From the NCBI GenBank assembly GCA_947501265.1, contig CANMVY010000006.1, positions 5 through 64,004 of the forward strand: a stretch of 64,000 nucleotides of DNA, read 5' to 3'. Below, piece after piece: positions 1-32,823 of the stretch. Each line of letters opens with the position of its first letter. Position 1 is the first letter of the stretch. Under the pieces are notes generated by a model. That model had not been told where the DNA came from. It worked only from the letters and a program-made list of their open reading frames with translations, and did no database searches. Both the position numbers and the translations under genes were made by a program. This DNA comes from Bacteroidota bacterium (lineage in GTDB: Bacteria; Bacteroidota; Bacteroidia; UBA7662; CANHCV01).

Positions 1-3000
1 ACTCGGTTGTTCCATCGAAATCAACCGATTTGATGCGGTAGAAGGTGGTTGCTGGAATGTTCTGAGCATCACGGAAGGAATAATTTTGAAGGGTATTGGA
101 ATTTCCAACCGCTGCAACTTGACCGATTTTCTCAAACTTTTTGCCATCCAAAGAACGCTCGATTTCGAAACGATCGGTTCCTTTTTCAGAAGCGGTTGAC
201 CAAGTTACCATTGTTGACTCATTCACCTTTTTAGCGGCTACTTGAACCCAGGTAACGGGAAGAGCGCCGTTGCCACTACCTACTCCGAATGGTGAGAAGG
301 TACCCATGTAGTTGTTGTAAGAAATGGAGAACGGACCAGTTCCAGTAGCCGATTTTGAACCAGAGCTTAGTTTTTCCCAGGTATTGTTGGCCGAATTACA
401 GTGTGAAGCGTAGCAAAGGTTTCTGTTGAATAAATTCAATTCGTCTGTTCCAGTCCATTGGAAAGTTAGGTCAACTCCAGAAACATTCGCTCCATTTTTC
501 GTGATGTGCCAAGTGCGATTAACCGACTCTTGAGTGATGGCGTTTCCTCCACTGCAAGAAGTGGTAATTTGATCTTCAACCCGTGCACCCATGATTCCAC
601 CGTCGTTGTTCTTAACTGTGGTAGGATTATAAGAAGCGTTACCAATTTTAAAGGTGAACGACTCATTGGAATTGAAATCTTTGGTCACTTGTCCCAAACC
701 ATTTGTTTTTAGGTAAGAATTCGAATGTCCACCTTGGATTGTCGCATTTTTCCCAAAAGAAAGATCGGAATTATCTAAGGTAACATTTCCATTGGTTAGA
801 TTCAAGAGATTGTTAATGTTAACAGATTTGTCGATTTTGATTCCGCTTGAACGATTAACCACCAAAGTTCCCAATTGATTGTTTACATCCGTTAGAGGAA
901 GATTTAGTTGACCTCCATTTCCTTCAATTTTCAGGCTTGAATTGGCAGTAGTTTTAATTTTTCCTTGGCCATTTAGGTCTCCTTTAATGGTCATGGTATT
1001 TGATCCAACAAAAATGGTATCGTTAAGTGAAATATTTTGAATGGTTAAGTTGCCATTCAAAACCGGATTCCATAAAGTTCCGTTTGGAATATCTACATCT
1101 TCAGCTGAATCAGGGATACCACCACACCAATTTCGTGAATCGAACCAGTTGTCGTTAATTTCTCCAGTCCAATTCTTGTTTTTTACATTAACCGGGAAGT
1201 TTGGAGTGAAATTGGAAGCACAAACCCCATTTTTCAATTCAGCACGGAATTGACGTTGTGTTGTTAAATTCGAGAATGAAAGGGTATTAGTTGTATTGGT
1301 TACATCATTCCATACGTTTCCATCGGTGCTCCATTGCCATTTTTGAACAGCTCCGGTTTGATTAGAAACCTGCAATACTCCAGCATTAGTTCCACGACAA
1401 ACCAATTGATCTCCAGAAACCTGACCTGATTGGGTGGGTTGATCAACTTGAACAGCCACGGTTCGGTTGGAACTACATCCAAAAATGTTGGTAGCAGTTA
1501 AGGTTAAGTTCGCTGATTGATTGGGAGAGTAGTTTGAGACACTAGCTTGGTTTCCAACATTAGAATTGTTTTGATCATCCCAACTGTATGTAGCTTCATA
1601 ATTTTTAATACCAGCAATCAATACATTATCAATGGCCCAATATCTTTCTGCACCTGTGGTAACGTAATTAAAACGGATAAAAACGGTAGATTGATTTAGG
1701 AATCCAGCTGGTATGGCAATGGTTTCCTTCGAAAAGTTAGTTCGATCTCGAACATCATTCGTATACGATTGAAGAGATGTCCAAGTTGTTCCATTGGTTG
1801 AAATAGAGACATTTGCAAAGTCGGTACTTCCATCATCATTGTAATAATGGAAGAAATCTAAGTTTGCACTTGAAAACCCAGCAGTTGAAAACGAAGGCGA
1901 AATGATGGAAACATTCGTAGCACCATTATGATTTTCTGAATTTGCAAAGACAAAACGGGAATTATCATTACTTCGATAGTCATCGCCATTGTAATTATAG
2001 GTACTTTGTCGGAAAGTAAAACTCGTTCCATTTCTGGAACTTGAACTACCTCCTGTGGAACCATTTACCAACGTCCATGCTGCTTGATTGGATTCAAAAC
2101 CGTTAATGAATGTGGTATCAAATCGTGGAGTTGTAGAAGCCGTTGCATTCAATTGAACCGATGATCCTCTGCAAATTTGATTGGAAGTGGCAGAAGCCAC
2201 AACAATAGTTTGTATTGGAAGAATGGAAACGCTTAGGCTGTTGGAATTGGTGTTTGCGAAATTGGGGCAAGCATCAGCGCTTGGAGTTAATTCCAAAGAA
2301 ATGGTTTTAGCAGCGGTAAAGGTATCTGCAACCAAAGTGGAAGAATTGGTACCCACTGTAACCCCATTCACTCGCCATGAATAGGATGGATTGCTTCCTC
2401 CATTGGTAATGCTAGAGTTGAAAGTAACAGATGTATTGGAGCAAATAGATGATTTAGGTGTGCTAATCGATGCTGTTGCTGTTGTGCGACTTTTCACCTG
2501 CATGGTAATGGTCGAAGCAGAAACTGTATTCGATGTTCGGCAAGCGGCATTGCTGGTCAACACCAAACCAATGACATCCCCGTTGGCCAATCCACTGGAA
2601 GCGTAAGTCGCAAAAAATGCACCCGGGATGTTCGACCCATTGCGGGTCCATTGATACGATGGAGATGCACCGCCGTTGGTGATGGATGAAGTAAAGCTTT
2701 GAGCGGTTCCAGGACAAATGTTGTTGGTATTTACCGAAAAGCTCACCGTTGGAGTAACGCTGGCGTTGATTTGAGCCGTAATGGTCGAAGCCGTAGCGGT
2801 GTTAGCTGTTCGACAGTTCGCATTGCTGGTCAATACTAATCCAATCACATCTCCGTTGTTCAAAGAGTTAGATGAATAGGTTGAAGAAGAAGCACCTGAA
2901 ATGTTAGAACCATTGCGGGTCCATTGGTACGCTGGAGAAGCACCACCGTTGGTGATGGATGAAGAAAAGTTTTGAGTTGTTCCAGCACAAACGTTGTTGG

Positions 3001-4240
3001 TATTCACCGAAATGCTTACCGTTGGAGTTACGTTGGAGTTGATTTGAGCCGTAATGGTTGAAGCTGTTGCTGTATTCGAAGTTCTGCAAGTGGCGTTGCT
3101 GGTTAATACCAAACCAATCACATCTCCATTGTTCAAAGAGCTGGAAGAATAGGTTGAAGAGGATGCTCCAGAGATATTGCTTCCGTTGCGTGTCCACTGG
3201 TAAGCTGGAGAAGCTCCACCGTTGGTGATGGAAGAAGTAAAGTTTTGAGTTGTTCCAACACACACGTTGTTGTTCACCGAAATACTCACCGTTGGAGTTA
3301 CATTTGAGTTAACGGTCATTGTTGTGGCAGATGATGTTGCAGTTGGTGCACAAGTTCCACTTGAAGTAACACGAAGTGATATTTGATTTGAGTTAGATAA
3401 GGAAGTAGTCGTGTAAGTTGAAGAATTTGCTCCAGCAATGTTAGAGCCATTTAATAACCATTGATAACCGGGTGTTGTTCCACCATTTGAAACGGTAGAA
3501 GAAAAGGCTACTGAAGATCCGGAACATACCGAATTCGATGGAGTAGAAATTGAAACCGTTGGAGTTGTAGCGGTAGCGTCTCCAGTTAATTTAAAATCGT
3601 CGATGGTCCAACGTTCACTAGAACCATTATTATCTAGCGTAATTCTTACTCGAAGATTTGAAATACTTGGAAGATTGGTGATTTCTACGGTAGAATATCC
3701 GTCGCTAGTTCGATTACCACCAGAAGAAGGTGTAAATACGGTAACTCCAGCGGTAGAACTGAAGGGAACACTTGCAACACCTGTTCCGGTTGAGTAATGC
3801 CAGTACGCATTAGATTTCCCCGTTACTTCCAATAGATCGGTGTAAGAACTCCCTCCATTGGTCGAAATCTCAACCATAGCGATATCAGATTCATCCAATC
3901 CGTTGTTCGTACTATTCAACGACCAAGCAGCCAATCTAAATCTTAACTTGTTGTTGCAATACGCAGATGTGTTAATGTCTGAAGATGAAAGAATCGTTTG
4001 TTGGTTCGTACATGACCCTGCTTGCGTTCCTTCACTGAAGAAGGGTAAACTTGCAGGCCTACTGGAACTATTACTATTCCCACTTAAGTAAGTAAGATTG
4101 CTCGTGGAGGAGAAAACCCCAGCGGAACCATTAAAGGGTGCCGAAGCAATAACGGTTTGAGCTTGAACGCTCGAAAAACAACAAATTCCCAAGAGGAATG
4201 GCAATGATGTTTTTAACAATGTTTGTAACTTTTGTCGCAT
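1..4240 (-). CDS. Large secreted surface adhesin, T9SS-substrate type. N-terminal signal peptide, jelly-roll/MAM-like (choice-of-anchor-J-like) domains, at least 5 tandem 91-aa Ig-like repeats. Partial: the C-terminus and presumed T9SS sorting domain lie upstream of window position 1.
   Basis: Minus-strand frame is open from the ATG at 4240 to the window edge. The N-terminus MRQKLQTLLKTSLPFLLGICCFSSVQAQ is a signal peptide. Repeats carry the motif FTSSITNGGASPAYQWTRNGSNI...C. Two domains end in W(T/A)IDD/N-hydrophobic. The last in-window residues (FYRIKSVDFDGTT) are typical of the beta-sandwich that precedes T9SS C-terminal domains. The gene is absent from the ORF track only because its stop codon lies outside the window. 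Confidence 0.75.
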   Translation of the reverse strand, partial: MRQKLQTLLKTSLPFLLGICCFSSVQAQTVIASAPFNGSAGVFSSTSNLTYLSGNSNSSSRPASLPFFSEGTQAGSCTNQQTILSSSDINTSAYCNNKLRFRLAAWSLNSTNNGLDESDIAMVEISTNGGSSYTDLLEVTGKSNAYWHYSTGTGVASVPFSSTAGVTVFTPSSGGNRTSDGYSTVEITNLPSISNLRVRITLDNNGSSERWTIDDFKLTGDATATTPTVSISTPSNSVCSGSSVAFSSTVSNGGTTPGYQWLLNGSNIAGANSSTYTTTSLSNSNQISLRVTSSGTCAPTATSSATTMTVNSNVTPTVSISVNNNVCVGTTQNFTSSITNGGASPAYQWTRNGSNISGASSSTYSSSSLNNGDVIGLVLTSNATCRTSNTATASTITAQINSNVTPTVSISVNTNNVCAGTTQNFSSSITNGGASPAYQWTRNGSNISGASSSTYSSNSLNNGDVIGLVLTSNANCRTANTATASTITAQINASVTPTVSFSVNTNNICPGTAQSFTSSITNGGASPSYQWTRNGSNIPGAFFATYASSGLANGDVIGLVLTSNAACRTSNTVSASTITMQVKSRTTATASISTPKSSICSNTSVTFNSSITNGGSNPSYSWRVNGVTVGTNSSTLVADTFTAAKTISLELTPSADACPNFANTNSNSLSVSILPIQTIVVASATSNQICRGSSVQLNATASTTPRFDTTFINGFESNQAAWTLVNGSTGGSSSSRNGTSFTFRQSTYNYNGDDYRSNDNSRFVFANSENHNGATNVSIISPSFSTAGFSSANLDFFHYYNDDGSTDFANVSISTNGTTWTSLQSYTNDVRDRTNFSKETIAIPAGFLNQSTVFIRFNYVTTGAERYWAIDNVLIAGIKNYEATYSWDDQNNSNVGNQASVSNYSPNQSANLTLTATNIFGCSSNRTVAVQVDQPTQSGQVSGDQLVCRGTNAGVLQVSNQTGAVQKWQWSTDGNVWNDVTNTTNTLSFSNLTTQRQFRAELKNGVCASNFTPNFPVNVKNKNWTGEINDNWFDSRNWCGGIPDSAEDVDIPNGTLWNPVLNGNLTIQNISLNDTIFVGSNTMTIKGDLNGQGKIKTTANSSLKIEGNGGQLNLPLTDVNNQLGTLVVNRSSGIKIDKSVNINNLLNLTNGNVTLDNSDLSFGKNATIQGGHSNSYLKTNGLGQVTKDFNSNESFTFKIGNASYNPTTVKNNDGGIMGARVEDQITTSCSGGNAITQESVNRTWHITKNGANVSGVDLTFQWTGTDELNLFNRNLCYASHCNSANNTWEKLSSGSKSATGTGPFSISYNNYMGTFSPFGVGSGNGALPVTWVQVAAKKVNESTMVTWSTASEKGTDRFEIERSLDGKKFEKIGQVAAVGNSNTLQNYSFRDAQNIPATTFYRIKSVDFDGTTE
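2364..3600 (-). repeat. In-frame tandem repeat array with period 273 bp (91 aa). Three high-identity units begin at about 2637, 2910 and 3183. They are flanked by more diverged copies.
   Basis: Direct reading shows ccattgcgggtccattg...ggtgatggatgaag recurring at exactly 273-bp spacing. Units are roughly 80-90% identical at the DNA level. Every unit encodes an Ig-like YQWTRNG repeat of the adhesin. Confidence 0.85.
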
Positions 4241-4248
4241 AAAATTTT

Positions 4249-4265
4249 TGTTTGCGGTACAAACA
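4249..4265. promoter_or_regulatory. Inverted repeat TGTTTG-CGGTA-CAAACA, 9 nt upstream of the adhesin start codon. Possible operator site.
   Basis: Perfect 6-bp arms seen in the sequence. Downstream of it on the minus strand lies a candidate Bacteroidetes -7 element (TATGTTTG). Confidence 0.2.
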
Positions 4266-4323
4266 TATAGCTAATTTTTTAAATGTGCAAGAATATTTAA
4301 TTTGTTGCAAAAAAATTAACATA

Positions 4324-4352
4324 GAAAAAGGGGGAACTTGGAAGTTCCCCCT
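4324..4352 (-). terminator. Rho-independent terminator for the 4373..6637 gene.
   Basis: Hairpin GGGGGAAC-TTGGAA-GTTCCCCC, followed on the minus strand by TTTTT. Confidence 0.7.
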
Positions 4353-4372
4353 TTCGAAAAAGAATGAATTGG

Positions 4373-6637
4373 TTACTTGATCAACTTGTAGTTGACTATT
4401 CCTTCTTTGGTTTGAATCCGAAGGAAGTAAGCCCCTTTGTTTAAATTCTCGGTGTTCAAAACGGTTTGAACATTTCCAGACTTCATTCCCATATCTAAGG
4501 TCTGTACCAATTTGCCTTGAATATCCATCAAAGTGATCTTCACCTGAGACGATTTTAAAAGTTCAAATTGAACATGAATCTGATCTTGAACAGGATTAGG
4601 GTAAACCATGGTGTTCAACACATCAAATTGTTTAGTTTGATTTACAGAAGCCAAAATGTAGGTAGAATTAATCACAAAATCGATTCCAGAAACCGTTGGA
4701 TTTGAAGAGCTAACAACCACCGTTACATTCGCAGGCGTTAACCCTGGCATATCCATGGTAACGGTATAGGTACCTGCCTCAACATCTGAAATGATGTATT
4801 CGCCATTCATATCCGATTCAGCAGTTCCTACCACATCGTTGCTGGAATTCACCAAGTAAACCAAATGTCCGGCTAAGGAATTGACCTTTCGTGATCCCAT
4901 AAAAACATTTCCACGAACTACAAATGGACGAGTGGGGCGATTTGGCATTTTTGCCAAACGAATATTGGTGTTCTGACGACCTGGGCATACGTTAACAGGA
5001 GTTGAAGAGAACCACCATGTGGAATTACCGAAATACGTAGGAAGGTACATTCGGAATCCCGGCGTGGAAGAATCGGCCATCGCTTGAATCAAATAGGAAC
5101 CGTTGGCCACCCCGTTAAAGGTGTAATATCCATTAGCGTTGGAACGAACGGTTTGGCGCAAGGCTGTACCTAAATTTCCAACTTCGTACAATCTCACCCA
5201 TGCATTATTTACAGCCAAATTCATACTGTCACGGGTAATATAACCGGCAATGGTACACGTTGTTGCATTACTTCCCAAACGAATGGTATCGCATTTATCG
5301 GATCGGCAATTGGTTGCTGAGTCAAACATGGTTAAGCAAACACGGAAAATACCAGTAGAATTGTAGGTTTTAGATGGATTCATAGCAGTTGAGCTAGTTC
5401 CATCTCCAAAACTCCAAGTGTAGTTGGCCGCGGGGCCTCCCATGGAGATGTTTTGGAATTGAACGGTACTATTCTGAATGGTATAAGTGAAATTGGCTCG
5501 ACAATTTGGAGCCGTTGGAGTTCCCATTACACGAATAGAATCACAAATGGTGTTTCGGCAAATGGCGCCATTGGAAGAATCGATGATGGTTAAACAAGCC
5601 CAATAAACCCCATTACGAGAATAGATATGATTAACCACAGCTCCTGCTCCGAAAGTTCCATCACCAAAATTCCAAGAATAAGTGGTTCGAGGTGAAGGCG
5701 TTAACGACCTACTCGTAAATAGTACTGAACGGGAAGATTGTTGTACGAAGTGCGTAAAGGAGGCTCTACAACCGGTATTTGAACCACCACCACTAATGAT
5801 AAAACTATCGCATTTGGTGTTATTGCACTGATTCATTGAATCAACAATGGTCAAACAAATGGTATAAGATCCAGGCGTTAAACTTGTTGTTGCAGATTGT
5901 CCCATTAAAACAATGGGAGAATTGTTAGCTTGCGTGAGAGTCCATCGGTAAAAAGTACCGGGGCCTACTCCTGTTGAAGTAGAAGTAAATACACCCGTAT
6001 TTCCCTGAATCGATTTTGTAAAATTGGCCAAACAAGCAGTAGTAGAATTTTGAATGGAAATATTTTTACAGATGGTATCATTGCAATTGGTATTCGGATT
6101 TGAAATACTTAAGCAAACGCTATACATGCCTGATGCACGGTAAGTGTGGGAAGGATTCGCCAAAGTGGAAGAAGTTCCATCTCCAAATGACCAAAAGTAA
6201 TTGGTCCCTGGCGTGTTTACTCCTGTAGAGGTATTGGTAAAGTTGGAGGTTAACCCGGTTGAACTAGAAGTGAAATTGGCAATGCATGCCGTTGTATTAC
6301 CGCAATAATTTAGGTTCAAGGTTAAAGTTGGCGAATTAGGTGAAAAGAATCCGTTCGCACTAACCAATACACCCAAACAATTGAATGTGGCTGCGGTAAC
6401 CATTCCCTGAGGAACTCGGCTATTCACCGTAGCAGAATAACAACCGTTTGCATTGGTTGTAACCGTTACCGGTGGAACCATGGTCATGGAATCGAAACGA
6501 AGGGTAATGCTTTTATTTGTAAGGTTTACTCCTCCCCCATTCAACAAGCAACCGCTAATGGTAAATGGGTTTTGGCTGAAGCCAAACAGCCCCACCATGA
6601 CAAAGGCGAGGACAAAAATGTGTTTAATTTTATTCAT
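4373..6637 (-). CDS. T9SS cargo protein: signal peptide, 4 PKD domains, 2 carboxypeptidase-regulatory-like domains, T9SS type-A C-terminal sorting domain.
   Basis: PKD motifs W(S/N)FGDGT...NP.HTY occur four times. The C-terminus reads VYPNPVQDQIHVQFELL...ITLMDIQGKLV...GAYFLRIQT...KLIK. The start overlaps the stop of the upstream gene (ATGA at 6634-6637). Confidence 0.8.
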   Translation of the reverse strand: MNKIKHIFVLAFVMVGLFGFSQNPFTISGCLLNGGGVNLTNKSITLRFDSMTMVPPVTVTTNANGCYSATVNSRVPQGMVTAATFNCLGVLVSANGFFSPNSPTLTLNLNYCGNTTACIANFTSSSTGLTSNFTNTSTGVNTPGTNYFWSFGDGTSSTLANPSHTYRASGMYSVCLSISNPNTNCNDTICKNISIQNSTTACLANFTKSIQGNTGVFTSTSTGVGPGTFYRWTLTQANNSPIVLMGQSATTSLTPGSYTICLTIVDSMNQCNNTKCDSFIISGGGSNTGCRASFTHFVQQSSRSVLFTSRSLTPSPRTTYSWNFGDGTFGAGAVVNHIYSRNGVYWACLTIIDSSNGAICRNTICDSIRVMGTPTAPNCRANFTYTIQNSTVQFQNISMGGPAANYTWSFGDGTSSTAMNPSKTYNSTGIFRVCLTMFDSATNCRSDKCDTIRLGSNATTCTIAGYITRDSMNLAVNNAWVRLYEVGNLGTALRQTVRSNANGYYTFNGVANGSYLIQAMADSSTPGFRMYLPTYFGNSTWWFSSTPVNVCPGRQNTNIRLAKMPNRPTRPFVVRGNVFMGSRKVNSLAGHLVYLVNSSNDVVGTAESDMNGEYIISDVEAGTYTVTMDMPGLTPANVTVVVSSSNPTVSGIDFVINSTYILASVNQTKQFDVLNTMVYPNPVQDQIHVQFELLKSSQVKITLMDIQGKLVQTLDMGMKSGNVQTVLNTENLNKGAYFLRIQTKEGIVNYKLIK

Positions 6638-8064
6638 GGGTTTGTAATTAATTTTTGCATAAAGCTTCCATCCAAAGACCTCAAAAGGTGCAAATTGTTG
6701 CTTGATGAAAGTTGAAAGTTGAAAGTATTTCCTGGAAAAATTTGAAATGATTGAATGATACGACCAGATAAGTCATAAATTTCAAATTCTCGAATTTCAT
6801 TAGAACGATTTTCAAGGGAATAAGAGCTGCCAGAATGGGTTAAAACGAAATTGGAACGATCTAGCATCGTAGGAATTACATTGTTGGCCACCATTTTAAC
6901 AACAACCGAGTTGGTTGCATTCGGGGTTCCACCATTGAATTGTACATAGGCCGTGTTTTCAATGGAATCTCCATAACGAAGTCCTTGGCGAACACCAGCA
7001 GAAAAGTACAAGTAACCTTGAGACAAAGTGGGGTCATTCGAAGAATCAGGCAAAACGATGTTTGAAAAATCCCAACGAAGAACATTGCCAAGTACGCTAA
7101 ATTGGAAAGGATGACTCGAAGACCCGATTCGAATATCGGTTAATGGAAGATTGGTATCCAAAGTATCAATCACCGAAACATTGGAAACCGTAAATCCGGT
7201 TTTATTCTGAAATCGAATGAAGTAATTGATGCGGTTCGTTGACGGAGAAATATAGGTTGGATTAACGGATTTAAAGGTTGGTGAGATGTTATTCGTTACC
7301 GATTGAACGACATTCGATTTGTTGTCAGATGGGTAAATGTCGGTTAAATTTTGAGTTGCTGCCTCAAATTGAACCATGGATCCTGGCAATACCGTTGAAG
7401 GAATTCGAACATCTACAAAAATTTGTTTTTCTTCTCTGATGTGAATGGTTTGGTTAATATCCCAATACAAGGTATTACCAACTGAACGACTCGGTGCAGG
7501 AACGGAACGATAATGTTGTGTTCCAGTAGGGATTTCAAACTTAACGGAAAAAGAATCAATTGCTTCAGATCCCAAATTTTTTAAATGAATCGTGTATCGA
7601 TCAATGCTGGAATTCAAAGCATTCCAACCGTATGGAGCTGATGTTGTTACTTTTATGTCGGTTCGATTTGGAAAAATGGTTTGAGGAATGTGATAGAAAT
7701 TCTTAGGAGCTGTGTCGGATGCCACATAAAATGTTGCATTTTGAATGCACTTATTTTGAGTGTAGTAATGACGATAATCGTTGGTATCTCTTAACAAGGT
7801 AATCATGTGGAGCATGCGAATGGGGATTCTGAAAGAATAATTCCCCAATGAATCGGTCATGGTGTACTGCGGATTGCTTCCATTGGGAAGACTAATTTTC
7901 ACCATCCGAAAAGAAAGTCCTTCTTCGTTGGAGTTAAAACTACAGTTTTCATTGTTATCGTGAAAAACCTTTCCTCCAACCCAACCCGTTTGAGCAATTG
8001 CACCAGAAGTCATTCCCAAAATGGAAATGAAAAAAAGTACTTTGTAAATGCTCATTTTGGACAT
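6634..8064 (-). CDS. Secreted protein with an SdrD-B/Cna-B-like N-terminal domain and a T9SS C-terminal sorting domain. Function unknown.
   Basis: Signal peptide MSKMSIYKVLFFISILGMTSGAIAQ. N-terminal motif GWVGGKVFHDNNENC...GNYSF. C-terminal EFEIYDLSGRIIQ...LHLLRSLDGSFMQKLI matches the distal half of a T9SS C-terminal domain. Confidence 0.6.
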   Translation of the reverse strand: MSKMSIYKVLFFISILGMTSGAIAQTGWVGGKVFHDNNENCSFNSNEEGLSFRMVKISLPNGSNPQYTMTDSLGNYSFRIPIRMLHMITLLRDTNDYRHYYTQNKCIQNATFYVASDTAPKNFYHIPQTIFPNRTDIKVTTSAPYGWNALNSSIDRYTIHLKNLGSEAIDSFSVKFEIPTGTQHYRSVPAPSRSVGNTLYWDINQTIHIREEKQIFVDVRIPSTVLPGSMVQFEAATQNLTDIYPSDNKSNVVQSVTNNISPTFKSVNPTYISPSTNRINYFIRFQNKTGFTVSNVSVIDTLDTNLPLTDIRIGSSSHPFQFSVLGNVLRWDFSNIVLPDSSNDPTLSQGYLYFSAGVRQGLRYGDSIENTAYVQFNGGTPNATNSVVVKMVANNVIPTMLDRSNFVLTHSGSSYSLENRSNEIREFEIYDLSGRIIQSFQIFPGNTFNFQLSSSNNLHLLRSLDGSFMQKLITNP

Positions 8065-9608
8065 TATTTTGATTTAAGGTAATAACGAACAGAAACGCCT
8101 GCCTCAAATATACTCATTTCTCTGAAAATCAAACTGTTTTTGTTTGAAAATTTGACAGAAAAGGGGCGGCCGATTTGTGCTCCAATTCCCCAATGTTGGG
8201 CCACTCTCGATTGAATCCAAATCGAAGATTTTCCAACTGCTTCCCATTCTATTTTTGAAGGCATGTTGGTTGATTCCAAGGAAATGGGATCGACGATTTG
8301 AAGAATGTTCATTTTTTGGAATCCCATTCCCAAATTCTGTTGAATTCCCAACTCTAACGATGGGTTAATTTTCCAAGATTTGTAAATGCTTCCTTGAAGG
8401 TTCATTCTGCTTTGAGTCACTTCAATCTGTTCTTCCTTGTGAATTTGCCCTCGTGGACCAAGTGGAATATATCCCAAAATTCTTCCAGTTGAACTATCTA
8501 AAACGGGGATTTCTGTAATGTGATATTCAATTTCTTTTTTGAACGTACTTGTTGAAACACCACCTCCAAAGCCGACCCCAAAACCTTTACTCATTGGTTT
8601 GATCCAAAGAATACCTATGTTCATTTGTGGAATGATCTTCCAACTCTGAAGTGGATCCCAATGTTTATTTTTCTCTCCGAAATATTCCAATTTTTTATTC
8701 GTTGAACCGGATGATAAACTCAATTGCAAAAAGTTGCGCTTTTTGTTGTTGGATTTAACGATCGGTAAATCATCCTTTCTTTGAAAGTTTCCTTGAATCA
8801 ACCTTGTTTTTGATTTCAACGGGGAAAACTCCAAGTTTTCAACCACTAATTTTCCTTTTGAAGTATTGGTTTCTGAATTCTCAAGTAATCTTCCAATGTT
8901 ATTGAAATTTGAAGTCAATTTTGATTCAATATCTTCAAAAGAATTTTTCAATTTCCTCTTTTTTCGTGCAGTTTCTTTTGAATTTAAAAGAGTTGGTTCA
9001 AATGATCTTGAATTGATTGATTTTGTTTTGGTTAAGTTGATTTTATCGGCTTTTGAATTGTTTTGAAGAATTGGGTTGCGATGGGCCAATTTTCTAGCTC
9101 TAGAAGAACCTACCAAACCAGAAATAGTACCGCTTTTTGGTTGTTCCGCAAGGTTTGGTTGAGCTTGATGTAGATTTCCTTTTGATTTAGATTCAATACC
9201 AAGATTACCTTCTTCATTGATCTCGAACTTTTGAATGGACCAACCGGAAAAAAAGATCAACAATAAAATCGCAGCACGTTTGCTCCATTTTTTCAAGATC
9301 AGCCCATTCCAATAGGATTTAAACTCTTGGAAGCTTAATCGACCCGCATTAAGATGTTGAGAACTTTGAGTGTGTAACCACTCATCGAGGGAATGGGTTG
9401 CCGATTCTTGTTTCTCTTGGTACTTTAAAAACTCAGCGAAATTTGGGTTTTCTAAGGGTACAGAATTGGTTTGATTTTCCAGCCAATGATCTAATTGATC
9501 TTTTTTAGGAATGACTGACTTTTCTTGAAACGATTCAAAGGAAGGAACATCGTTTTCAACAGCGTTGGAAAGTGACGCATGTAAAAATTGATCAAGCGGA
9601 TGTTTCAT
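8064..9608 (-). CDS. Anti-sigma-factor-like single-pass membrane protein. About 110-aa cytoplasmic N-domain, one TM helix, a K/S/N-rich linker, and a beta-strand-rich C-terminal domain.
   Basis: Its start overlaps the stop of the ECF sigma gene by 17 bp. TM segment AAILLLIFFSGWSIQKF. Repeated LD(H/E)WL..Q motifs in the N-domain. No recognisable FecR motif. Confidence 0.45.
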   Translation of the reverse strand: MKHPLDQFLHASLSNAVENDVPSFESFQEKSVIPKKDQLDHWLENQTNSVPLENPNFAEFLKYQEKQESATHSLDEWLHTQSSQHLNAGRLSFQEFKSYWNGLILKKWSKRAAILLLIFFSGWSIQKFEINEEGNLGIESKSKGNLHQAQPNLAEQPKSGTISGLVGSSRARKLAHRNPILQNNSKADKINLTKTKSINSRSFEPTLLNSKETARKKRKLKNSFEDIESKLTSNFNNIGRLLENSETNTSKGKLVVENLEFSPLKSKTRLIQGNFQRKDDLPIVKSNNKKRNFLQLSLSSGSTNKKLEYFGEKNKHWDPLQSWKIIPQMNIGILWIKPMSKGFGVGFGGGVSTSTFKKEIEYHITEIPVLDSSTGRILGYIPLGPRGQIHKEEQIEVTQSRMNLQGSIYKSWKINPSLELGIQQNLGMGFQKMNILQIVDPISLESTNMPSKIEWEAVGKSSIWIQSRVAQHWGIGAQIGRPFSVKFSNKNSLIFREMSIFEAGVSVRYYLKSK

Positions 9609-10197
9609 CCCATCCCTCCTTTCTCAATAATTTTTTCAACGCAGCCCGAGCACGATTCAGTTGGCTTTTTGAAGTTCCTTCGGAAATACTCAGCAATTCT
9701 GAAATTTCTTTGTGCGAATAATGCTCTACTGCGTACAAATTCAAAATGGTACGATAACCAACCGGCAACTTGTGAATCAATCGAATTACGGCATCGTATT
9801 GGTGGTCTTTTCGGTGAAGAGCTTCGTAATCGAGATCGAAATCTGGATCATGCCCCATGGTATCGTCATTCCATTCCACCAAAATTTGTTTTTTAATGGC
9901 ATTAATGGCATTATTAATCATAACCCGGGTAATCCAAGTTTCCAATTTTGCTTGTCCTTTAAACGTATGGATTTTTGTAAAAACCTTGATGAAACCGTCG
10001 TGCATCAAATCTTTAGCATCTTCAATTTTTGCTGTGTATCGTTTGCAAATAGAAAGCATTTTGGGCGCAAATCGTTCGTACAAAACCTTACTGGCAAGCT
10101 GTTCACCGGCTAAAACTCCGGCAATTAACAACTCGTCGGTATGGTATGTTTCTTCCTTTTGGCCCAAAAATTTTCGTATGTTGATGCTTAATTCCAA
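9592..10197 (-). CDS. RNA polymerase sigma-70 factor, ECF subfamily.
   Basis: Region 2: ELLIAGVLAGEQLASKVLYERFAPKMLSICKRY. Region 4: YRTILNLYAVEHYSHKEISELLSISEGTSKSQLNRARAALKK. There is no in-frame ATG upstream of region 2, so the start must be TTG (10197) or a nearby TTG. Confidence 0.85.
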   Translation of the reverse strand: MELSINIRKFLGQKEETYHTDELLIAGVLAGEQLASKVLYERFAPKMLSICKRYTAKIEDAKDLMHDGFIKVFTKIHTFKGQAKLETWITRVMINNAINAIKKQILVEWNDDTMGHDPDFDLDYEALHRKDHQYDAVIRLIHKLPVGYRTILNLYAVEHYSHKEISELLSISEGTSKSQLNRARAALKKLLRKEGWDETSA

Positions 10198-10237
10198 ATC
10201 GAAGTAAAGACGAGAAGATGATGAATGGTTGCAGACT

Positions 10238-11317
10238 TTAAAGAGGAATTTCCAATTTTTCGGAAATCTTTTTCAATTGATCAACAACAATGGGATTTAA
10301 TGGAATTCCTTTTTCCATTCTTTCCGAAAAATATGCCATTTCTGGTTCACCTGGAATGATGACAGGAATATTTTCAACAGCTGGAATGGAGGATTTAAAT
10401 CGGTGAATCCAAGTTAAAATGGCTTGGTCGTAGGAAGATCGTGTTCGGAATGCTTCCGGGTTGATGATCCAAAAGCAATGACCAATCCCCTTCCCTACCG
10501 TTTCCGAAGGCATAGGTGCAAATGCCGGGAAGGGCGGAACCCACGGACCGAAGTTAGCTCCACTTAAAACGCCCGAAAACAAGTCGACCACGGCCGACAA
10601 TCCGAAACCTTTGTGTACGCCTAACTCTTCAAAACTACCCAGAGGAAGCATCATTCCTCCTTTTTTCAAAATGGAAGGATCGGTACTAGAATTTCCATCG
10701 GTATCCATCACCCACCCTTTTGGAATGGGTTTGCCTTTTCTTTCAGCAATTTCTAATTTACCGTTGGCCGCTGCAGAGGTTGCCAAATCAACCACCACGT
10801 GGCGGCCATCTGGACTTGGAAAAGCATAGCACATGGGATTCGTTCCCAACATTCGTTCAATTCCCCCAGCAGGGGCCACAAATGCAGAAGCATTGGTGAA
10901 TGAAATACCAATAAATCCTTGAGAAAGCGCTTTTTTTAAATGGGAATAAGCAATTCCGAAATGATTAGAATGATTCACAACCACCATTCCTATTCCACAT
11001 TTTTTCGCCTTTTCTATGGCCATATCGGTTGCGATAGAACCTGAAACCAAACCAACTGCCGCATCAGCATCCAATGTGGCCGTGGCCAGGGCTTCCGCTT
11101 CGATGGTGATGTTTGGAGTTGGATTGATTCGCCCAACCTGAATGAGATTTAAATAACCTTGCAAGCGAGCTACTCCGTGGGAATCAATTCCGCGCAAATC
11201 GGCTTCCAATAAATTGTTGGTAGCTAGCGCGGCATCATCTTCTGAAAATCCACTTTTTATCCATACTTGATGAACAAAATTCCGAAGTTCATAAAACTTA
11301 AATACAACGTCTTCCAT
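10238..11317 (-). CDS. Ldh_2-family (malate / L-lactate / sulfolactate dehydrogenase type 2) oxidoreductase.
   Basis: Motifs GIDSHGV, NHSNHFG, GTNPMCYAFP and AANGKLEIAERKGKPIPKGW are typical of PF02615. Confidence 0.75.
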   Translation of the reverse strand: MEDVVFKFYELRNFVHQVWIKSGFSEDDAALATNNLLEADLRGIDSHGVARLQGYLNLIQVGRINPTPNITIEAEALATATLDADAAVGLVSGSIATDMAIEKAKKCGIGMVVVNHSNHFGIAYSHLKKALSQGFIGISFTNASAFVAPAGGIERMLGTNPMCYAFPSPDGRHVVVDLATSAAANGKLEIAERKGKPIPKGWVMDTDGNSSTDPSILKKGGMMLPLGSFEELGVHKGFGLSAVVDLFSGVLSGANFGPWVPPFPAFAPMPSETVGKGIGHCFWIINPEAFRTRSSYDQAILTWIHRFKSSIPAVENIPVIIPGEPEMAYFSERMEKGIPLNPIVVDQLKKISEKLEIPL

Positions 11318-12051
11318 TATCGAATCCCTTCCACCAGAATATCTGCAATATGCAAGACTTTCATTGGACTATTTTTATTCTCGAGGTAAGCTTTCAAGTG
11401 AAGCAAACAGCTCAAATCGGAAGAAACCAAAAATTCAGCTCCTGTTTTTTCGGCTTCAATGCATTTTTGATCACCCATCCCAACCGAAATGGGCTCGTAT
11501 TTTGCCGCAAAAGTTCCTCCAAATCCACAGCAAGTTCTATTGTTCTCTAAATCTCTCCAATCGATGCCCTGAATGGGTTTCAATAATTTTCGTGGTTCTT
11601 CGTAAATGTTGCATTCTCGAAGTGCAGAACAAGCATCGTGGTAAGTAATGCTCGCATCAAAACGCATGGTTGAGGTATCTACTTTTAACACGTTCACGAG
11701 AAAATCAACAAATTCAAAGGTGTTTTTTTTGATTTGTTTCCAAGTGTTTTGAAGGGATGAATTTTGGAATAAATCAGCGTAGAAATTTTTAATCATTCCG
11801 GTGCAAGAACTTGAAAGAACCACAACATACCGGTCATTGTTGAATTCTCCGATAAACTTTTCGGCCACTTCTTGCGCCTCAGGCCAAAATCCCGCATTGA
11901 ACGCCGGTTGTCCGCAACATGTTTGATTTTGGTGGTAATGTACCTCGCAACCGAAATACTCTAAAACGCGCACGGCATTCATGGCACTTTGTGGGAAACA
12001 TTGGTCTACGAAGCAAGGGACAAAGAAATCAATTTGAATTTTCTGGGACAT
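11317..12051 (-). CDS. LutA/YkgE-family (Fe-S)-binding protein with two CCG cysteine-rich domains.
   Basis: IDFFVPCFVDQ...CCGQPA and CCGFGGTF...DLSCLLHL, co-linear with E. coli YkgE. Overlaps Ldh_2 by 1 nt and the MFS gene by 23 nt. Confidence 0.8.
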   Translation of the reverse strand: MSQKIQIDFFVPCFVDQCFPQSAMNAVRVLEYFGCEVHYHQNQTCCGQPAFNAGFWPEAQEVAEKFIGEFNNDRYVVVLSSSCTGMIKNFYADLFQNSSLQNTWKQIKKNTFEFVDFLVNVLKVDTSTMRFDASITYHDACSALRECNIYEEPRKLLKPIQGIDWRDLENNRTCCGFGGTFAAKYEPISVGMGDQKCIEAEKTGAEFLVSSDLSCLLHLKAYLENKNSPMKVLHIADILVEGIR

Positions 12052-13444
12052 GTTTAGGGCGTTGAATCATTTGAAACAAAATAAAACTAGCAACAAAAAA
12101 ACCTGCCAACATCAAAGTAGAAACCCTCATGCTTCCGGTAATTTCGTTCACCACTCCAAATGCAAAAGTACCCAAAACGATACCTATTTTCTCGGTAAAC
12201 TCGAACAACGAAAAGAAAGAAGCCAGATCGGTGGAATCTTTTGGAATAAAGCGAGCAAAAGATGCTCTCGACAACGATTGAATGCCTCCCATAATCAAAC
12301 CTACAGCCAAAGCCAAAGCGTAAAATTGCATATCCGTTTGCAAGTAGTAGGCACCAATACAAATCCCCACCCAAAGCAATACGCCTGCTTTTATCACCGG
12401 AATGTCACCAAATTTATTGGATAATTTGGAAAAAAGATAGGCTCCTCCTATTGCTACCAATTGAATTAACAAAACCGTTAGGATTAATTGGCCTGTTTCT
12501 AAATGCAATTCATTTTTACCGAACAAGGTAGCCACAAACATCACCGTTTGAAGACCCATGCTCAACATGAAAAAACCGAAGATGAAAAAAGAAAGTGATC
12601 GATTTTGCAAAGCATATTGAAGTACTTTTTTCAACTCTTTGAATCCGGCCCCCAATTGTTTCAATCCGCCTTTACCTTTTGCTTTTTCAGAAGGAAGTCG
12701 TTTGAACGTGATAAGCGAAAATCCAAACCACCAGATTCCTGTTAAAACAAAACCTATTCTCGAACCCAATCCTGCAAAGTGAGACTTCACCAATTGATCC
12801 AATTCTTCTTTGGGTAAATTTTGATCTAGCGTTCCACGAAATCCTTCCACATCAAAGAAAAGTCCGGGAACTAAAATCATCACTAAAATTAAAATCAACA
12901 GAATAACCGAGCCAATGTAGCCATAGGAAAAACCTTTGGCAGAAACCTCATCGTATTTGTCGGGTGAGGCAATTTCGGGCAAGAAGCCGTTGTAATACAC
13001 CAAGCTTCCACCCCACCCGATTCCTGCGAGAATAAAACCAATAACACCAATTTCAACGTGGTTGTTATCGAAGAAAAAGAGCGACATCACGGATAGAGAA
13101 CCCAAGATGACGTAGAAGCGCATGAACTTCTTTTTGGCTCCAGAAACATCGGCCCATCCTGACAACAATGGAGCCAAAAGAGCAACCATGAAATAGAAAA
13201 AGGTGCCGCAATAGGAATACAGAGCTGTGTTTAGAAACTCCATTCCAAAAATTTTAATGTAGTGCAATTGTTGCTCTGCACCTTCCGAAAAAACTTTTTC
13301 GATTCTACCTGTATTTTGAGCGGCGGCTTTGGTAACGCCTTCGAAATATTGGGGAAAAATTGCTGTTGTAATAACCAAATTGAAAACCGAATTGGCCCAG
13401 TCGTACATGGCCCAACCTCGAATGGTTTTTGGATTGTTCATCAT
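12029..13444 (-). CDS. MFS transporter, UMF1/Atg22-like family.
   Basis: N-terminal MYDWANSVFNLVITTAIFPQYF signature. Multiple TM segments. Confidence 0.75.
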   Translation of the reverse strand: MMNNPKTIRGWAMYDWANSVFNLVITTAIFPQYFEGVTKAAAQNTGRIEKVFSEGAEQQLHYIKIFGMEFLNTALYSYCGTFFYFMVALLAPLLSGWADVSGAKKKFMRFYVILGSLSVMSLFFFDNNHVEIGVIGFILAGIGWGGSLVYYNGFLPEIASPDKYDEVSAKGFSYGYIGSVILLILILVMILVPGLFFDVEGFRGTLDQNLPKEELDQLVKSHFAGLGSRIGFVLTGIWWFGFSLITFKRLPSEKAKGKGGLKQLGAGFKELKKVLQYALQNRSLSFFIFGFFMLSMGLQTVMFVATLFGKNELHLETGQLILTVLLIQLVAIGGAYLFSKLSNKFGDIPVIKAGVLLWVGICIGAYYLQTDMQFYALALAVGLIMGGIQSLSRASFARFIPKDSTDLASFFSLFEFTEKIGIVLGTFAFGVVNEITGSMRVSTLMLAGFFVASFILFQMIQRPKHVPENSN

Positions 13445-19056: not shown

Positions 19057-22000
19057 TCAAAACAAATACCTTAGCTGCATTTGCATCCAATGATTGATAC
19101 GTTGGCTTTCGCCCAATTGTCGAAGTTGGTAAGTCACCTGCGACTGAAGTCCACTCTTTAATACCGCATTCCAACTCAATCCAACAATGTTGTTTTTTCC
19201 AACAACCAATCCTTGCATCCATTCAAATCCTAATGGACTTCTCTGATTCCCCACAAAATCAATTTCTGTCCTTTGAAATTGAATTTTCCATTGCCCTTTA
19301 TCGCTTTGATTGATCCAAAAATCTGCTTTTAATTCTTGAATTTGGCACTGCTCCAGGGCCGATTTTTTTTGAGAAAACTTCCCGTCCACGTTTAGCCGCA
19401 TTTTTGAATTGACTTGAATTTGAACGCCTGGAACAGCATCCCAAGATCGGTAATCAAATGTTCTTTCTTGGAATAATTCCGATTCTTGAATCACTTTTTG
19501 AATGCCTCCCCTACCCCTCAATTGAAATTTTTTATGAACTACCCAGCGTACAATTCCATACGTTTCAACTTGGGATCGTTGGTCCAACCCGTTGCTGCTC
19601 CATTGCCCCAATTCATTTTCAATGTAGTTGATTTCAACGCCCCATTTTGGGTGGTTTCGATTGATCCACAAGGTATTTCTCCATTGACTTTGAAAAGAAG
19701 GCGTTTGTTCGGGGTTGAAATTCAATTGTGGGATTAATCCTTCCCAATTTTTGTTTTTCCAGGTCTGGCGATCCTGCTGCAATTGACTTGATGCATAAAT
19801 GGATTTCAGCCATGCTGGTCGAAAGGCCATTCCCGGCTGTAGGGTCAATTGCAAATTGGTTTTCGAATGAAAAACATCCAAATAGCTGGTGGTTGGCAGC
19901 AATAACTTAATGTAACGAGCACTATCGGCAAATATCGCCAATTCAAATTCATTCAATTCCTGAACCCCATTTCGGTTGTAATCGTTCCATTGATGGGTTC
20001 CCAACCCTGGAGCAACCGGTAAATAGGTAAAGTCTCTTTTCGGTGTTTTTCCCGACGTACTTTGTTGAAACCATTGGCCACTCACGGCACCTTTCCATTT
20101 TTCAAATTTTCCTTCCGTTTGAAAGGCCAAACTCTGATTTTTTTCAAGCGAGTTGGGAAGCATTAGTTCTCGCCATTGAAGTTGAAACTGATTTCCTTTT
20201 TTGTTGAATCCAACATTGCTAAAAATAGCATCTTGAACATTAGAAAAATCATTGGATCCCGGTTGAACATCTTTTCGTTTGCCCCATTGCCAGTGAAAAG
20301 AAGTGGAAGGGCGTTGGATCAACAACCTTGAAGAGAACTCTTCAAATGAAAAAGGTATAAAAAGGGTGGACAGATTTTTCCAACTGCTTTTTTCCAACAA
20401 ATATTTCGCCTGAATTTGTGGGGCGTATTTGTTTCTTTTTGATAGCTTATAATTGAACTCCGAATTCCCCTGAATAACTTCCCCAATAGAATCAGATAAA
20501 AAAGTTTGTTTTCCCCATTTCCACGATTGTTTCCAGTTCCATTGATCCTTTTGAAAAGATGATTGGAGATCAACCGAATTGCCCGAAATGCTTGACCAAT
20601 TTAATCGGGAATATCCGAGTGTAACTTGTTGAAAATCTGACCATTTGGCTTGGCTTTCAATTCTACTCAATTGTTCCCGACCACCTGAATATTGGGTGGG
20701 TACGTTCCATGTTCGATTGAATTCTGCAGATCGATAGGGTTGAAAAATTGAAAATCCAGAATCAAGGTATTCGTTTGTGATGGTATTTTTTAGATACATT
20801 TTCTTGGAAAGCACGAAAAAGGTATCTAATCGTTGAAGATGTGTTGAACTGGCCCATCCCCAGTTGGTGGAATTTCCGAGGGAACTGAAGGTATTCACAT
20901 CGAAAGAGCTGAGTGCGAATTCTTGTTTTAGTTTCCATTTCTTAAAGGACAGTTTGATACCGACCGTTTCCATGGTTTTGGATTGAGGGGCAACGGGAAC
21001 CACGATGGGGTCATAAGCGCCAGCAAGGAGCGTATCATTTCCAAAAACGGTAGGCGCTTTCCATAGGTAAGTACGTCCATTCTGTACGTTGGGACCAATC
21101 ACGTAATTCCCTTTTCCCTCGCCTACCAACGTAAAGGTGATTTGGTACAAGGTATTCGAAGAATCTTGAGAAACAATAAATACATTCCCGTAACCTAACG
21201 AGTCAATTTTTTCGTAAAAAACCAAGTTGGGTTGAAAATTGGCGATGCTGGCACCGTTGATTTGTGCCAAAGAAACATCGTTACCCACTTTTTCCAAAGA
21301 ACGAATCCAATTACTGTCTAATCCGCCTTGCAAAAATTGATACTTTTGGTCAGCTTCTCGGTAATGATTCCATGTTATCTCTATGGATTTATTTCGATAT
21401 TTCAGTTCCGCAGCATTGTTGATTCTTAGGTACGATTGATTGAGGTATTCAAACTCAACAATAATTCGAGATTGATTGGTGATCAGGTGTTTGGGAGTGA
21501 ATCGTATTTCTGAAGAGTTATAATCGAAGGTATAATCCAAATCTTGGCCGCGTTGCAACAACTGACCGTCCAAATATACTTTTTCACTGTTGGCCAAAAC
21601 GATCAAAAACTTCTCCTGTTCATTTCCCGTAAGTCGGTAAGGACCTTGAACTCCCTCTTCACCCCAAAAGGTATTTCGGCTAAATTTTCCACGATTTATT
21701 CCTGCAGACGCGCTCGTTTCAAGTTTGCCGTGAGAAAGGTTTTGGTTGTTTCTCGCCTGTACACCGTTGATATTGCGTTGAAGTTTTAAAAAATATTCGG
21801 AATCAATATTTAGGTCAAGGCCTCCAAAATTCCATTCGGATTTGGGCATTTTTAGCTGAATAAAAAATCGGTCAAAATCTTGAATTCGCTGGGTGGTGCC
21901 CTCGGGTTGAAACGGAGTTGTTTGGTCGGTTAATGCAGCCTTCAGATTGATTTTAGGGTGGATTTGACCTTCCATTTGGAGGTTTAAAGAAGATTGAAGG

Positions 22001-32200: not shown

Positions 32201-32823
32201 TCTTCTCCGATAAGCATTTGGCCATTTTAACGAAAAAAGCTGGAGTCGCCATACAAAGTCAAGAACAATCGATTCATGCCGATTTACATCAACTTTTTCC
32301 TAATCAATCCATTTTCCTAGTCAATCGAATCGATCAACCCGTTTCTGGATTATTTGTCATTGCTTTTTCTGAAGTAGTAGAACGAAAATTGCGAACCCAA
32401 TGGGAGGGCCAACAGGTAATCAAAAACTATTTGGCCATTTGCGAAAAAGAAATCGAAGGCCAAGGTGAACTTCATCACCAGTTAATCAAGGCAGGAAACA
32501 AGGCGAAAGTGGTTCTTGATTCTTCCGGCAAACCCTCTGCCCTTGCCTATCAGTTATTTGGGAAATCGGAAAAGTATTTCGGATACCTCATTCAACTAAA
32601 AACAGGTAGATTTCATCAAATTAGAGCTCAATTGGCCCACGCTGGAGCCTCCATTAAAGGCGATTTGAAGTATGGGGCCAAACGAAGCAACCCTGGGGGT
32701 GGGATCGGCCTTCATTCCTTCCAAATTGAATTCAAACATCCCATAACTTCCGAGAAATTGAAATTTGAAGCAAACCCACCCAAAGACAATTTGTGGGATT
32801 TTTTTAAAGCTTTACTTCCCTAA
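32182..32823 (+). CDS. RluA-family pseudouridine synthase.
   Basis: TGRFHQIRAQLAHAG catalytic motif. Confidence 0.8.
   Translation: MENFHIIFSDKHLAILTKKAGVAIQSQEQSIHADLHQLFPNQSIFLVNRIDQPVSGLFVIAFSEVVERKLRTQWEGQQVIKNYLAICEKEIEGQGELHHQLIKAGNKAKVVLDSSGKPSALAYQLFGKSEKYFGYLIQLKTGRFHQIRAQLAHAGASIKGDLKYGAKRSNPGGGIGLHSFQIEFKHPITSEKLKFEANPPKDNLWDFFKALLP

Follow-up and report, generated by a model that had tools for sequence, protein, structure and literature searches.

A Dma-like ECF sigma/anti-sigma pair predicted to drive two secreted surface proteins in an uncultured freshwater Bacteroidota lineage

What does an extracytoplasmic function (ECF) sigma factor control when its gene overlaps that of a protein matched by no known family, and when genes for two secreted proteins follow directly? 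This question is raised by a locus on contig CANMVY010000006.1 (assembly GCA_947501265.1) of an uncultured freshwater Bacteroidota lineage, of which we analyzed a stretch of 64 kb (the window). A preliminary description of this DNA had reported four overlapping genes on the minus strand, and we confirmed open reading frames (ORFs) at 9592..10197 (201 aa), 8064..9608 (514 aa), 6634..8064 (476 aa), and 4373..6637 (754 aa), with all junctions read directly. We propose, with a probability of roughly 0.6, that these genes form an ECF switch of the type built on Dma anti-sigma factors, which would be autoregulated from a promoter before the sigma gene (P1) and would drive two secreted surface proteins of type IX secretion system (T9SS) type from P1 and from an internal promoter (P2). 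The analysis establishes the gene order and overlaps, the domain content, a predicted barrel fold, and the conservation of the module and of its promoter motifs; from these, and by analogy with the Dma proteins, we infer sigma binding, localisation in both membranes, an activating signal, proteolytic release, and promoter use. The genes and the end of the operon are as follows.

9592..10167, minus strand: ECF sigma factor, 191 aa from TTG 10167 (the longest ORF gives 201 aa from TTG 10197)
6634..8064, minus strand: 476-aa secreted protein with a signal peptide, weak SdrD_B-like and CLIPPER/DUF11-like regions, DUF7619, and a C-terminus read as a degenerate T9SS type-A-like C-terminal domain (CTD)
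4373..6637, minus strand: 754-aa T9SS cargo protein with a signal peptide, PKD repeats, two CarboxypepD_reg domains, and a type A C-terminal sorting domain
4326..4355, minus strand: intrinsic terminator at the operon end, just after the 754-aa gene, with a 13-bp stem and a T-run, the only strong minus-strand terminator in 3900-11500

The sigma gene overlaps the 514-aa gene by 17 nt, the 514-aa and 476-aa genes meet at TAATG (a 1-nt overlap with the first ATG, or an 8-nt gap if the second ATG at 8055 is used), and the 476-aa and 754-aa genes meet at ATGA (a 4-nt overlap). For the 476-aa gene, some gene callers on identical or related contigs pick a start 9 nt downstream, giving 473 aa. A terminator scan of 3900-11500 found no strong minus-strand terminator between 10197 and 4373. 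The terminator that the preliminary description had placed before the adjacent giant adhesin gene was recovered at 4355..4326, and in an alignment of relatives it is kept through compensatory changes in the stem. We also observed a Shine-Dalgarno-like AGGAGG at 9609..9625 (minus strand), within the last sigma codons and 8-9 nt ahead of the 514-aa gene's ATG. This is unusual for Bacteroidota, where initiation is mostly not led by Shine-Dalgarno sequences.

The first protein is an ECF sigma factor, as had been described: it matches Sigma70_r2 (57.7 bits) and Sigma70_r4_2 (58 bits) in Pfam and the generic model TIGR02937 (97.7 bits) in NCBIfam, beyond which the NCBIfam assignment becomes no finer. 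Gene callers are divided on its length (191 versus 201 aa in identical or related contigs). The start at TTG 10167 appears more likely, since the -10-like element at 10208-10211 would place the transcript start near 10200. The window holds no second sigma gene, and among the more than 5600 relatives found, the nearest outside this clade are 45-50% identical. The premise of the preliminary description that ECF pairs in Bacteroidota are normally wired to SusC/SusD-type transducers holds only for the FecI/FecR-like group (SusC-linked; ECF240/TIGR02985), from which this locus departs in several respects. Its sigma factor scores 80.6 bits against the Bacteroidetes FecI-like model TIGR02985, below the cut-off of 126.4 bits, and the adjoining 514-aa protein contains no FecR or DUF4974 domain in Pfam. 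Whereas FecI/FecR systems use a TonB-dependent transducer, no gene for a Plug or TonB receptor occurs in the operon, and the predicted outer-membrane part and the putative anti-sigma factor are one polypeptide, unlike in FecI/FecR.

What, then, is the 514-aa protein? It has no match in Pfam or NCBIfam, in Pfam even at E<=10, and none of the anti-sigma domains zf-HC2, RskA, or RseA_N was recognisable in either database. Its residues 1-111 contain no cysteine and no HxxxCxxC zinc-binding motif, and a profile search of PDB sequences returned only low-complexity noise. The protein can be divided into four parts.

9276..9608, minus strand: residues 1-111, predicted cytoplasmic and putatively sigma-binding, with three tandem helix-loop-helix units
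9228..9275, minus strand: membrane helix, residues ~112-127, the sole strongly hydrophobic segment, with the Kyte-Doolittle maximum at residue 112
8754..9227, minus strand: tether, residues 128-285 (~158 aa), Lys/Asn/Ser-rich, variable, probably disordered and periplasm-spanning
8064..8753, minus strand: C-terminal domain, residues 286-514 and the stop codon, a conserved, beta-rich stretch of 229 aa predicted to form an 8-stranded outer-membrane-type beta-barrel

The N-terminal units follow the pattern LDxFL...FxxFxxK with F..F cores at residues 24, 57, and 93, and the ~111 aa that they occupy are conserved in an alignment of the homologues. AlphaFold2 (AF2) places helices at residues 4-12, 24-30, 38-47, 57-68, and 73-84, at a predicted local distance difference test score (pLDDT) of 45-66, and a hidden Markov model of the unit built from other proteins weakly matches residues 5-15 of the window protein (E 3e-4). 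A longer AF2 helix spans residues 93-126, and the hydrophobic segment is conserved in all homologues; the sequence KKWSKR precedes this segment, which favours an N-in topology. The tether consists of 71% polar or charged residues with a net charge of +12, has a pLDDT of 23-29, and is poorly conserved among homologues, with indels and variation in both length and sequence. The C-terminal domain is modelled as an 8-stranded barrel that, in a fold search with this model, is OmpA/NspA-like and resembles generic small outer-membrane proteins. A motif that is invariant in the family, EYHITEIPVLDS..ILGYIP, is located on a long hairpin between barrel strands 3 and 4, and from the standard topology of outer-membrane proteins we infer that this hairpin is an extracellular loop.

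This four-part anatomy is that of the Dma proteins defined in Bacteroides thetaiotaomicron (Pardue et al., 2024; PMC10927553), which consist of a cytoplasmic N-terminus, a membrane helix, a long disordered region, and a C-terminal 8-stranded barrel. In that work, residues 1-40 of Dma1 pulled down its ECF21 sigma factor Das1, the Dma1 barrel was found in outer-membrane vesicles (OMVs), and fractionation and western blots of doubly tagged Dma1 placed it in both membranes with proteolytic processing (PMC10927553). Class members include Dma1/Das1 (BT_4721/4720) and Dma2/Das2 in B. thetaiotaomicron (PMC10927553, PMC13088901), with the orthologues Reo/EcfO in B. fragilis and M0N98_03760/61 in Phocaeicola vulgatus (PMC9308784), and the architecture has been shown experimentally to be that of an anti-sigma factor in three Bacteroidales species (PMC10927553, PMC9308784). 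The 514-aa protein has the same anatomy, and by analogy and comparison it would bind the sigma factor and reside in both membranes. Like the Dma genes, its gene immediately follows an ECF sigma gene, with which it overlaps, in a member of the Bacteroidota, and a third operon gene is likewise seen for Dma2 (BT_1557). Judged by its architecture, the atypical anti-sigma factor is a divergent representative of this recently characterised class, and the earlier statement that this is 'not a characterised arrangement' is thus not supported (PMC10927553, PMC9308784). That description had also raised the prospect of a plain OmpA-like protein. In the model, the C-terminus does form an OmpA/NspA-like barrel, but it is joined to 111 predicted cytoplasmic residues and a membrane helix, and this combination is the layout of the regulatory Dma proteins.

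The window protein also differs from the known Dma proteins. Dma1 is annotated with OMP_b-brl_2 (PF13568), a match that the window protein does not give. The cytoplasmic region of Dma proteins is ~40-45 aa long and holds one unit, compared to ~111 aa and three units in the window protein. Reports confine the Dma class to Bacteroidota and place it in almost all genomes examined (27/29; PMC10927553), whereas the 514-aa family is tiny. Dma sigma factors are of group ECF21; the window sigma factor is identified at the level of ECF sigma factors. The known Dma outputs are NigD lipoproteins, OMVs, lipopolysaccharide (LPS), and the oxidative stress response, as opposed to the T9SS-type surface proteins of the operon and predicted regulon in the window. 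A looser parallel is the SigX/CfrX/CmpX/OprF system (ECF102) of Pseudomonas aeruginosa, whose operon also contains an OmpA-family 8-stranded barrel implicated in sigma regulation (PMC7826278); there, barrel, putative anti-sigma factor, and channel each form a protein of their own, whereas in the window the barrel is fused to the putative anti-sigma factor.

We found a similar layout beside related sigma factors outside the family. The outgroup sigma loci inspected were L016 (complete genome CP051243.1), L017 (an Owenweeksia metagenome-assembled genome), and L018 (a metagenome contig), and in each the sigma gene is followed by that of a 347-488 aa protein with one N-terminal unit (IEDFLRxKL..DWxxFExKL), a membrane helix at about residue 45, a disordered or low-complexity region, and a beta-rich C-terminus. 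The N-terminal region of the window protein is thus built from the unit that forms the entire cytoplasmic part of these partners, with copy numbers of one in the outgroup partners, three in the window protein, and five in family member P0011. The L016 partner matches OMP_b-brl_2 below threshold (E 7e-4). No cargo genes adjoin any of the three outgroup pairs, so the coupling to surface proteins is specific to the small 514-aa family.

These partners also bear on the idea that the 514-aa protein is not mainly an anti-sigma factor but an envelope component for the cargo, such as an outer-membrane anchor or a PorT-like accessory barrel, with the sigma factor controlled otherwise. The failure to recognise an anti-sigma domain or zinc-binding motif, the resemblance of the barrel to generic small outer-membrane proteins, the purely predicted nature of sigma binding, and the constant co-occurrence of 514-like proteins with a DUF7619 surface protein would all fit such a role. 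However, the overlap with the sigma gene is the standard position of an anti-sigma gene, the 111-aa region shares its unit with the partners of related sigmas that have no cargo genes, and the architecture is that of the experimentally confirmed anti-sigma factors in Bacteroidales. We therefore regard an envelope function as very improbable.

If the 514-aa protein acts as a Dma-type anti-sigma factor, its three N-terminal units would hold the ECF sigma factor at the inner membrane, where a single helix would anchor the protein, while the ~158-aa tether would cross the periplasm to the barrel in the outer membrane. By analogy with Dma1, a signal received there or at the cell surface could then have the protein cleaved and the sigma factor set free, and the freed sigma factor would transcribe from promoters of the form GCAAC(C)-N15/16-GTCT. 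We identified two candidates for such promoters in the operon.

10208..10232, minus strand: P1, GCAACC-N15-GTCT, a candidate for an autoregulated promoter used by the ECF sigma factor, in the 40 nt that separate the stop codon of Ldh_2 from the sigma gene
6676..6701, minus strand: P2, candidate internal ECF-dependent promoter, GCAAC-N17-GTCT within the last codons of the 476-aa ORF, with the 754-aa start codon (ATG) 40-65 nt further on

P1 would serve the sigma gene, the anti-sigma gene, and the gene for the DUF7619 protein, with read-through into that for the PKD protein, and P2 would drive the PKD/CarboxypepD_reg/T9SS-tail gene directly downstream of it. The gap before the sigma gene holds CTGCAACC-N-CGTCTTTA, and in an alignment of close relatives the -35-like and -10-like blocks of P1 are invariant while the spacer varies. 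The motif, as GCAAC(C/G)-N15/16-GTCT(T/A)A, also precedes the sigma genes of L009, L010 (as a GTCA variant), L016, L017, and L018, although the L016-L018 sigma factors are only 45-50% identical to that of the window. In all, it is kept in front of related sigma genes across eight divergent genomes. The strict form GCAACC-N15-GTC occurs once per locus and always before the sigma gene, the exception being a second copy in L010. P2 is found at the matching place in eight loci (L001, L004-L009, and L012), and its GCAAC is retained despite the replacement of a Ser codon (AGC) by an Arg codon (CGC), while its spacer drifts.

The strongest evidence for a link between promoter and regulon comes from the pair of motifs in L010. 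In this distant relative, the gene for the 476-aa orthologue ends with a terminator-like hairpin and is separated from the PKD gene by a spacer of ~220 nt. Within this spacer, 22 nt before the ATG of the PKD gene, we found GTGCAACC-N15-GTCAAA (GCAACC-N15-GTCA), which matches the variant before L010's own sigma gene. The strict motif occurs exactly twice in the 17.8 kb of this locus, compared to an expectation of 0.07, with 0/200 shuffles reaching two, and the two copies lie before the sigma gene and before the PKD gene.

A third motif match in the window, at 20012-20035 on the plus strand, was treated as a chance occurrence, as it lies inside a minus-strand gene and has no plus-strand gene downstream. 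Separately, the genes upstream of the sigma gene (Ldh_2, CCG-domain, and ATG22/MFS; 10238..13444, minus strand) overlap one another, and their order beside the sigma operon is kept even in the distant relatives L009 and L010. No terminator was detected in the gap after Ldh_2 in which the candidate sigma promoter sits, so that read-through from these metabolic genes into the sigma operon is possible.

How far does conservation of the module support the link to the cargo genes? The 514-aa family is small: a word-indexed search found nine clusters at 90% identity, a second such search with a profile that included distant members returned the same nine proteins and none new, and a HMMER scan of 1.84 billion representative proteins yielded only five clusters at 50% identity. 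Its two matches among GTDB species are both Bacteroidota, a placement that the neighbouring T9SS tails and a TAnnTTTG promoter fit. The order sigma gene, 514-like gene, DUF7619 gene is kept in every recovered locus of the family, including those whose 514-like protein is only 28% (L009), 23% (L010), or 21% (L011) identical to that of the window, and the PKD/T9SS gene is present in all recovered loci except the short L011 contig. In one metagenome contig (L007, NODE_9460), no gene was called at the Ldh_2 and DUF7619 positions (1351..2474 and 4472..5386) and the sigma factor was called at 155 aa; the missing calls could reflect frameshifts, pseudogenes, or poor assembly.

The regulon proposed in the preliminary description, a set of T9SS-secreted proteins, is thus supported by comparison for the two downstream surface-protein genes, through the codon overlaps, the synteny down to 21-28% anti-sigma identity, and the candidate promoters P1 and P2, while its inclusion of the giant adhesin did not hold. 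Several points weigh against our proposal. The likeness to Dma proteins was drawn from their published architecture. The barrel model was built on an alignment of 8 sequences, the full-length AF2 model (9-sequence alignment) has a pLDDT of 31.6, which is why the fold search refers to the C-terminal domain model, and neither the whole protein nor its C-terminal 228 aa matches OMP_b-brl_2 at E<=10. An hhalign comparison of the 514-aa family profile with the L016 partner was not significant (E 0.13), so that homology to ordinary Dma-like proteins rests on the architecture, the N-terminal unit, and the sigma relationship. The recovered loci are mostly close relatives that share their whole neighbourhood, so that only L009, L010, and L011 inform on conservation of the module. 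For the promoters, a relaxed form of the motif occurs 3 times in the window compared to 3.2 expected, which means that the argument rests on position and on conservation across genomes. P2 lies within coding sequence, so that part of its conservation may reflect constraint on the protein, and in L003 it reads AGATCT rather than AGGTCT at the -10 position. Finally, a further T9SS cargo gene, encoding an 872-aa PKD and Por_Secre_tail (T9SS type A) protein, lies in the same window at 61373..63991 (minus strand); such genes are thus common in this genome, and the proximity of regulator and cargo accordingly weighs less.

The main rival to our proposal is that the sigma and anti-sigma factors are a real pair but the cargo genes are mere neighbours, transcribed by read-through or from unrecognised housekeeping promoters, with the true regulon elsewhere in the genome and P2 a by-product of the constraint that coding for the C-terminal domain imposes. 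Synteny alone is weak evidence, as most loci also share the upstream housekeeping genes (Ldh_2, CCG, and ATG22); the window holds no more motif copies than chance predicts; the codons that P2 overlaps are conserved (SNNLxLLRS), and L003 departs from its exact -10 element; and the outgroup pairs have no adjacent cargo genes. Against such a passenger role speaks the PKD gene of L010, which stands behind its own terminator-like hairpin and spacer and carries an exact, non-coding copy of the sigma-promoter variant. The persistence of the three-gene order in L011 at 21% identity of the 514-like protein, the overlapping start and stop codons, and the lack of a terminator inside the operon also speak against it. 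On balance, we consider it unlikely that the cargo genes are passengers, and favour their control by the Dma-type switch.

We next consider the two proteins that this switch would drive. The 754-aa protein is a T9SS cargo with PKD and CarboxypepD_reg domains, as first described, with matches to PKD_4 (141.6 bits), CarboxypepD_reg (59.5 bits), Por_Secre_tail (PF18962; 57 bits), and TIGR04183 (46.5 bits) in addition to its signal peptide. The 476-aa protein had been described as an SdrD-B protein with a T9SS C-terminal domain. Its N-terminus does resemble a signal peptide, consistent with secretion, but its main domain is DUF7619 (Pfam, 95.4 bits), a CLIPPER-related, predicted isopeptide-bond domain typical of surface stalks (PMC12617251), while SdrD_B (25.3 versus a cut-off of 29.7 bits) and DUF11 remain under their cut-offs. 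At its C-terminus, neither Pfam nor NCBIfam detects a T9SS C-terminal domain, even at E<=10, and the YPNP motif is absent. A profile of the 476-aa C-termini does match a CTD profile over the last 48 residues (hhalign, E 9e-5, probability 59%), and the orthologues have a clear Por_Secre_tail in L011 and a faint one in L010. From this profile-profile match and these orthologues, we read the C-terminus as a degenerate CTD that lost its YPNP strand.

An ECF sigma factor tied to type IX secretion, with a CTD-bearing surface protein involved, has a precedent in the PorXY-SigP-PorA system that controls the T9SS in Porphyromonas gingivalis, where the CTD protein PorA relays a surface signal to PorXY-SigP (PMC7712824) and SigP belongs to ECF228 (PMC7826278). 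In contrast to the window, SigP lacks an anti-sigma factor; the response regulator PorX stabilises it, and its targets are the T9SS machinery genes, whereas the window operon has a putative anti-sigma factor, no two-component genes, and cargo-type targets. The PorA precedent raises the thought that the cargo in the window is input as well as output, with the displayed DUF7619 and/or PKD protein contacting the invariant loop of the barrel and feeding back on sigma release, so that the module would monitor display or T9SS function. The invariant coupling of DUF7619 and 514-like proteins across the small family and the placement of the most conserved family motif on a hairpin predicted to be extracellular are both compatible with such feedback. 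It is, however, speculative, the orientation of the loop is deduced from standard topology, and cargo as plain output explains the co-occurrence equally well, so that we hold it to be quite unlikely. An equally doubtful elaboration is a surface-display checkpoint, in which the T9SS-exported DUF7619 and/or PKD protein would dock on the loop, occupancy or T9SS performance would set sigma activity, and the triplicated unit would hold several sigma copies for a switch-like release.

The giant adhesin gene that follows the operon had been counted as a fifth cargo gene of the module. We conclude from the sequence comparison that it lies outside: a conserved terminator stands between, the gene has a housekeeping-type promoter without the ECF motif, and the adhesin is replaced in L010, where a TonB-dependent receptor and other genes are found downstream of the PKD gene instead.

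4260..4290, minus strand: promoter of the adhesin gene, of Bacteroidota housekeeping type, TTG ... TAtgTTTG as read from the sequence, conserved in relatives

The conserved element in this upstream region is TTG...TATATGTTTG, and no GCAAC..GTCT motif is present in 4260..4290. Of the two places at which a sigma-dependent motif had been anticipated, upstream of 10197 and of 4240, only the first, before the sigma gene, carries one. A TGCAAC hexamer and an inverted repeat upstream of the adhesin gene were considered as a third sigma target and rejected, as the hexamer is not conserved (CTCAAC and CTTACA in relatives), no GTCT lies at the right spacing, and the conserved TTG/TAnnTTTG promoter is present. 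The adhesin ORF (1..4240, minus strand) runs off the window edge, and in the visible part of 1413 aa only Ig_3 and PKD_3 were detected, both weakly. At ~2000..3400 (minus strand), it contains several near-identical tandem repeats of ~100 aa (VTPTVSISVN..C.GT.QNF.SSITNGGASP.YQWTRNGSNI.GA...), and this stretch exceeds its surroundings in both GC content and GC skew.

The Dma class itself is already known; it was described in 2024 in gut Bacteroides, with few known targets (vesicles, LPS, and stress). New here are a divergent family that domain searches do not see, the tandem expansion of its N-terminal unit, and a predicted surface-protein regulon, which we did not find described for Dma factors in the titles and abstracts of the literature on them. 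With this locus, the class reaches into an uncultured freshwater lineage, in a form overlooked by domain searches. Given its compact and predictable regulon, with two motif-bearing candidate promoters and two surface proteins, signal and target would be simpler to investigate here than in Bacteroides, and with a putative sigma-binding unit at 3-5 copies instead of one, it can be asked experimentally in what stoichiometry the sigma factor is sequestered. If the link to the cargo is true, Bacteroidota would have a new way of controlling which proteins the T9SS displays on the cell surface; if the checkpoint reading were also true, a ligand would be defined for a Dma-type system for the first time, and T9SS cargo would for the first time be tied directly to transcription through an anti-sigma factor.

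Elsewhere in the window, we observed a 1119-aa ORF at 19057..22416 (minus strand) with no Pfam match at E<=1e-5, which lies downstream of, and overlaps by 11 nt, a histidine kinase gene (HisKA and HATPase_c; 22406..24829, minus strand); a gene of equal length (1119 aa) stands at the matching position at the edge of L001. In addition, an 865-aa protein encoded at 32804..35401 (minus strand), which is unrelated to the sigma operon, matches DUF5916 with 600 bits.

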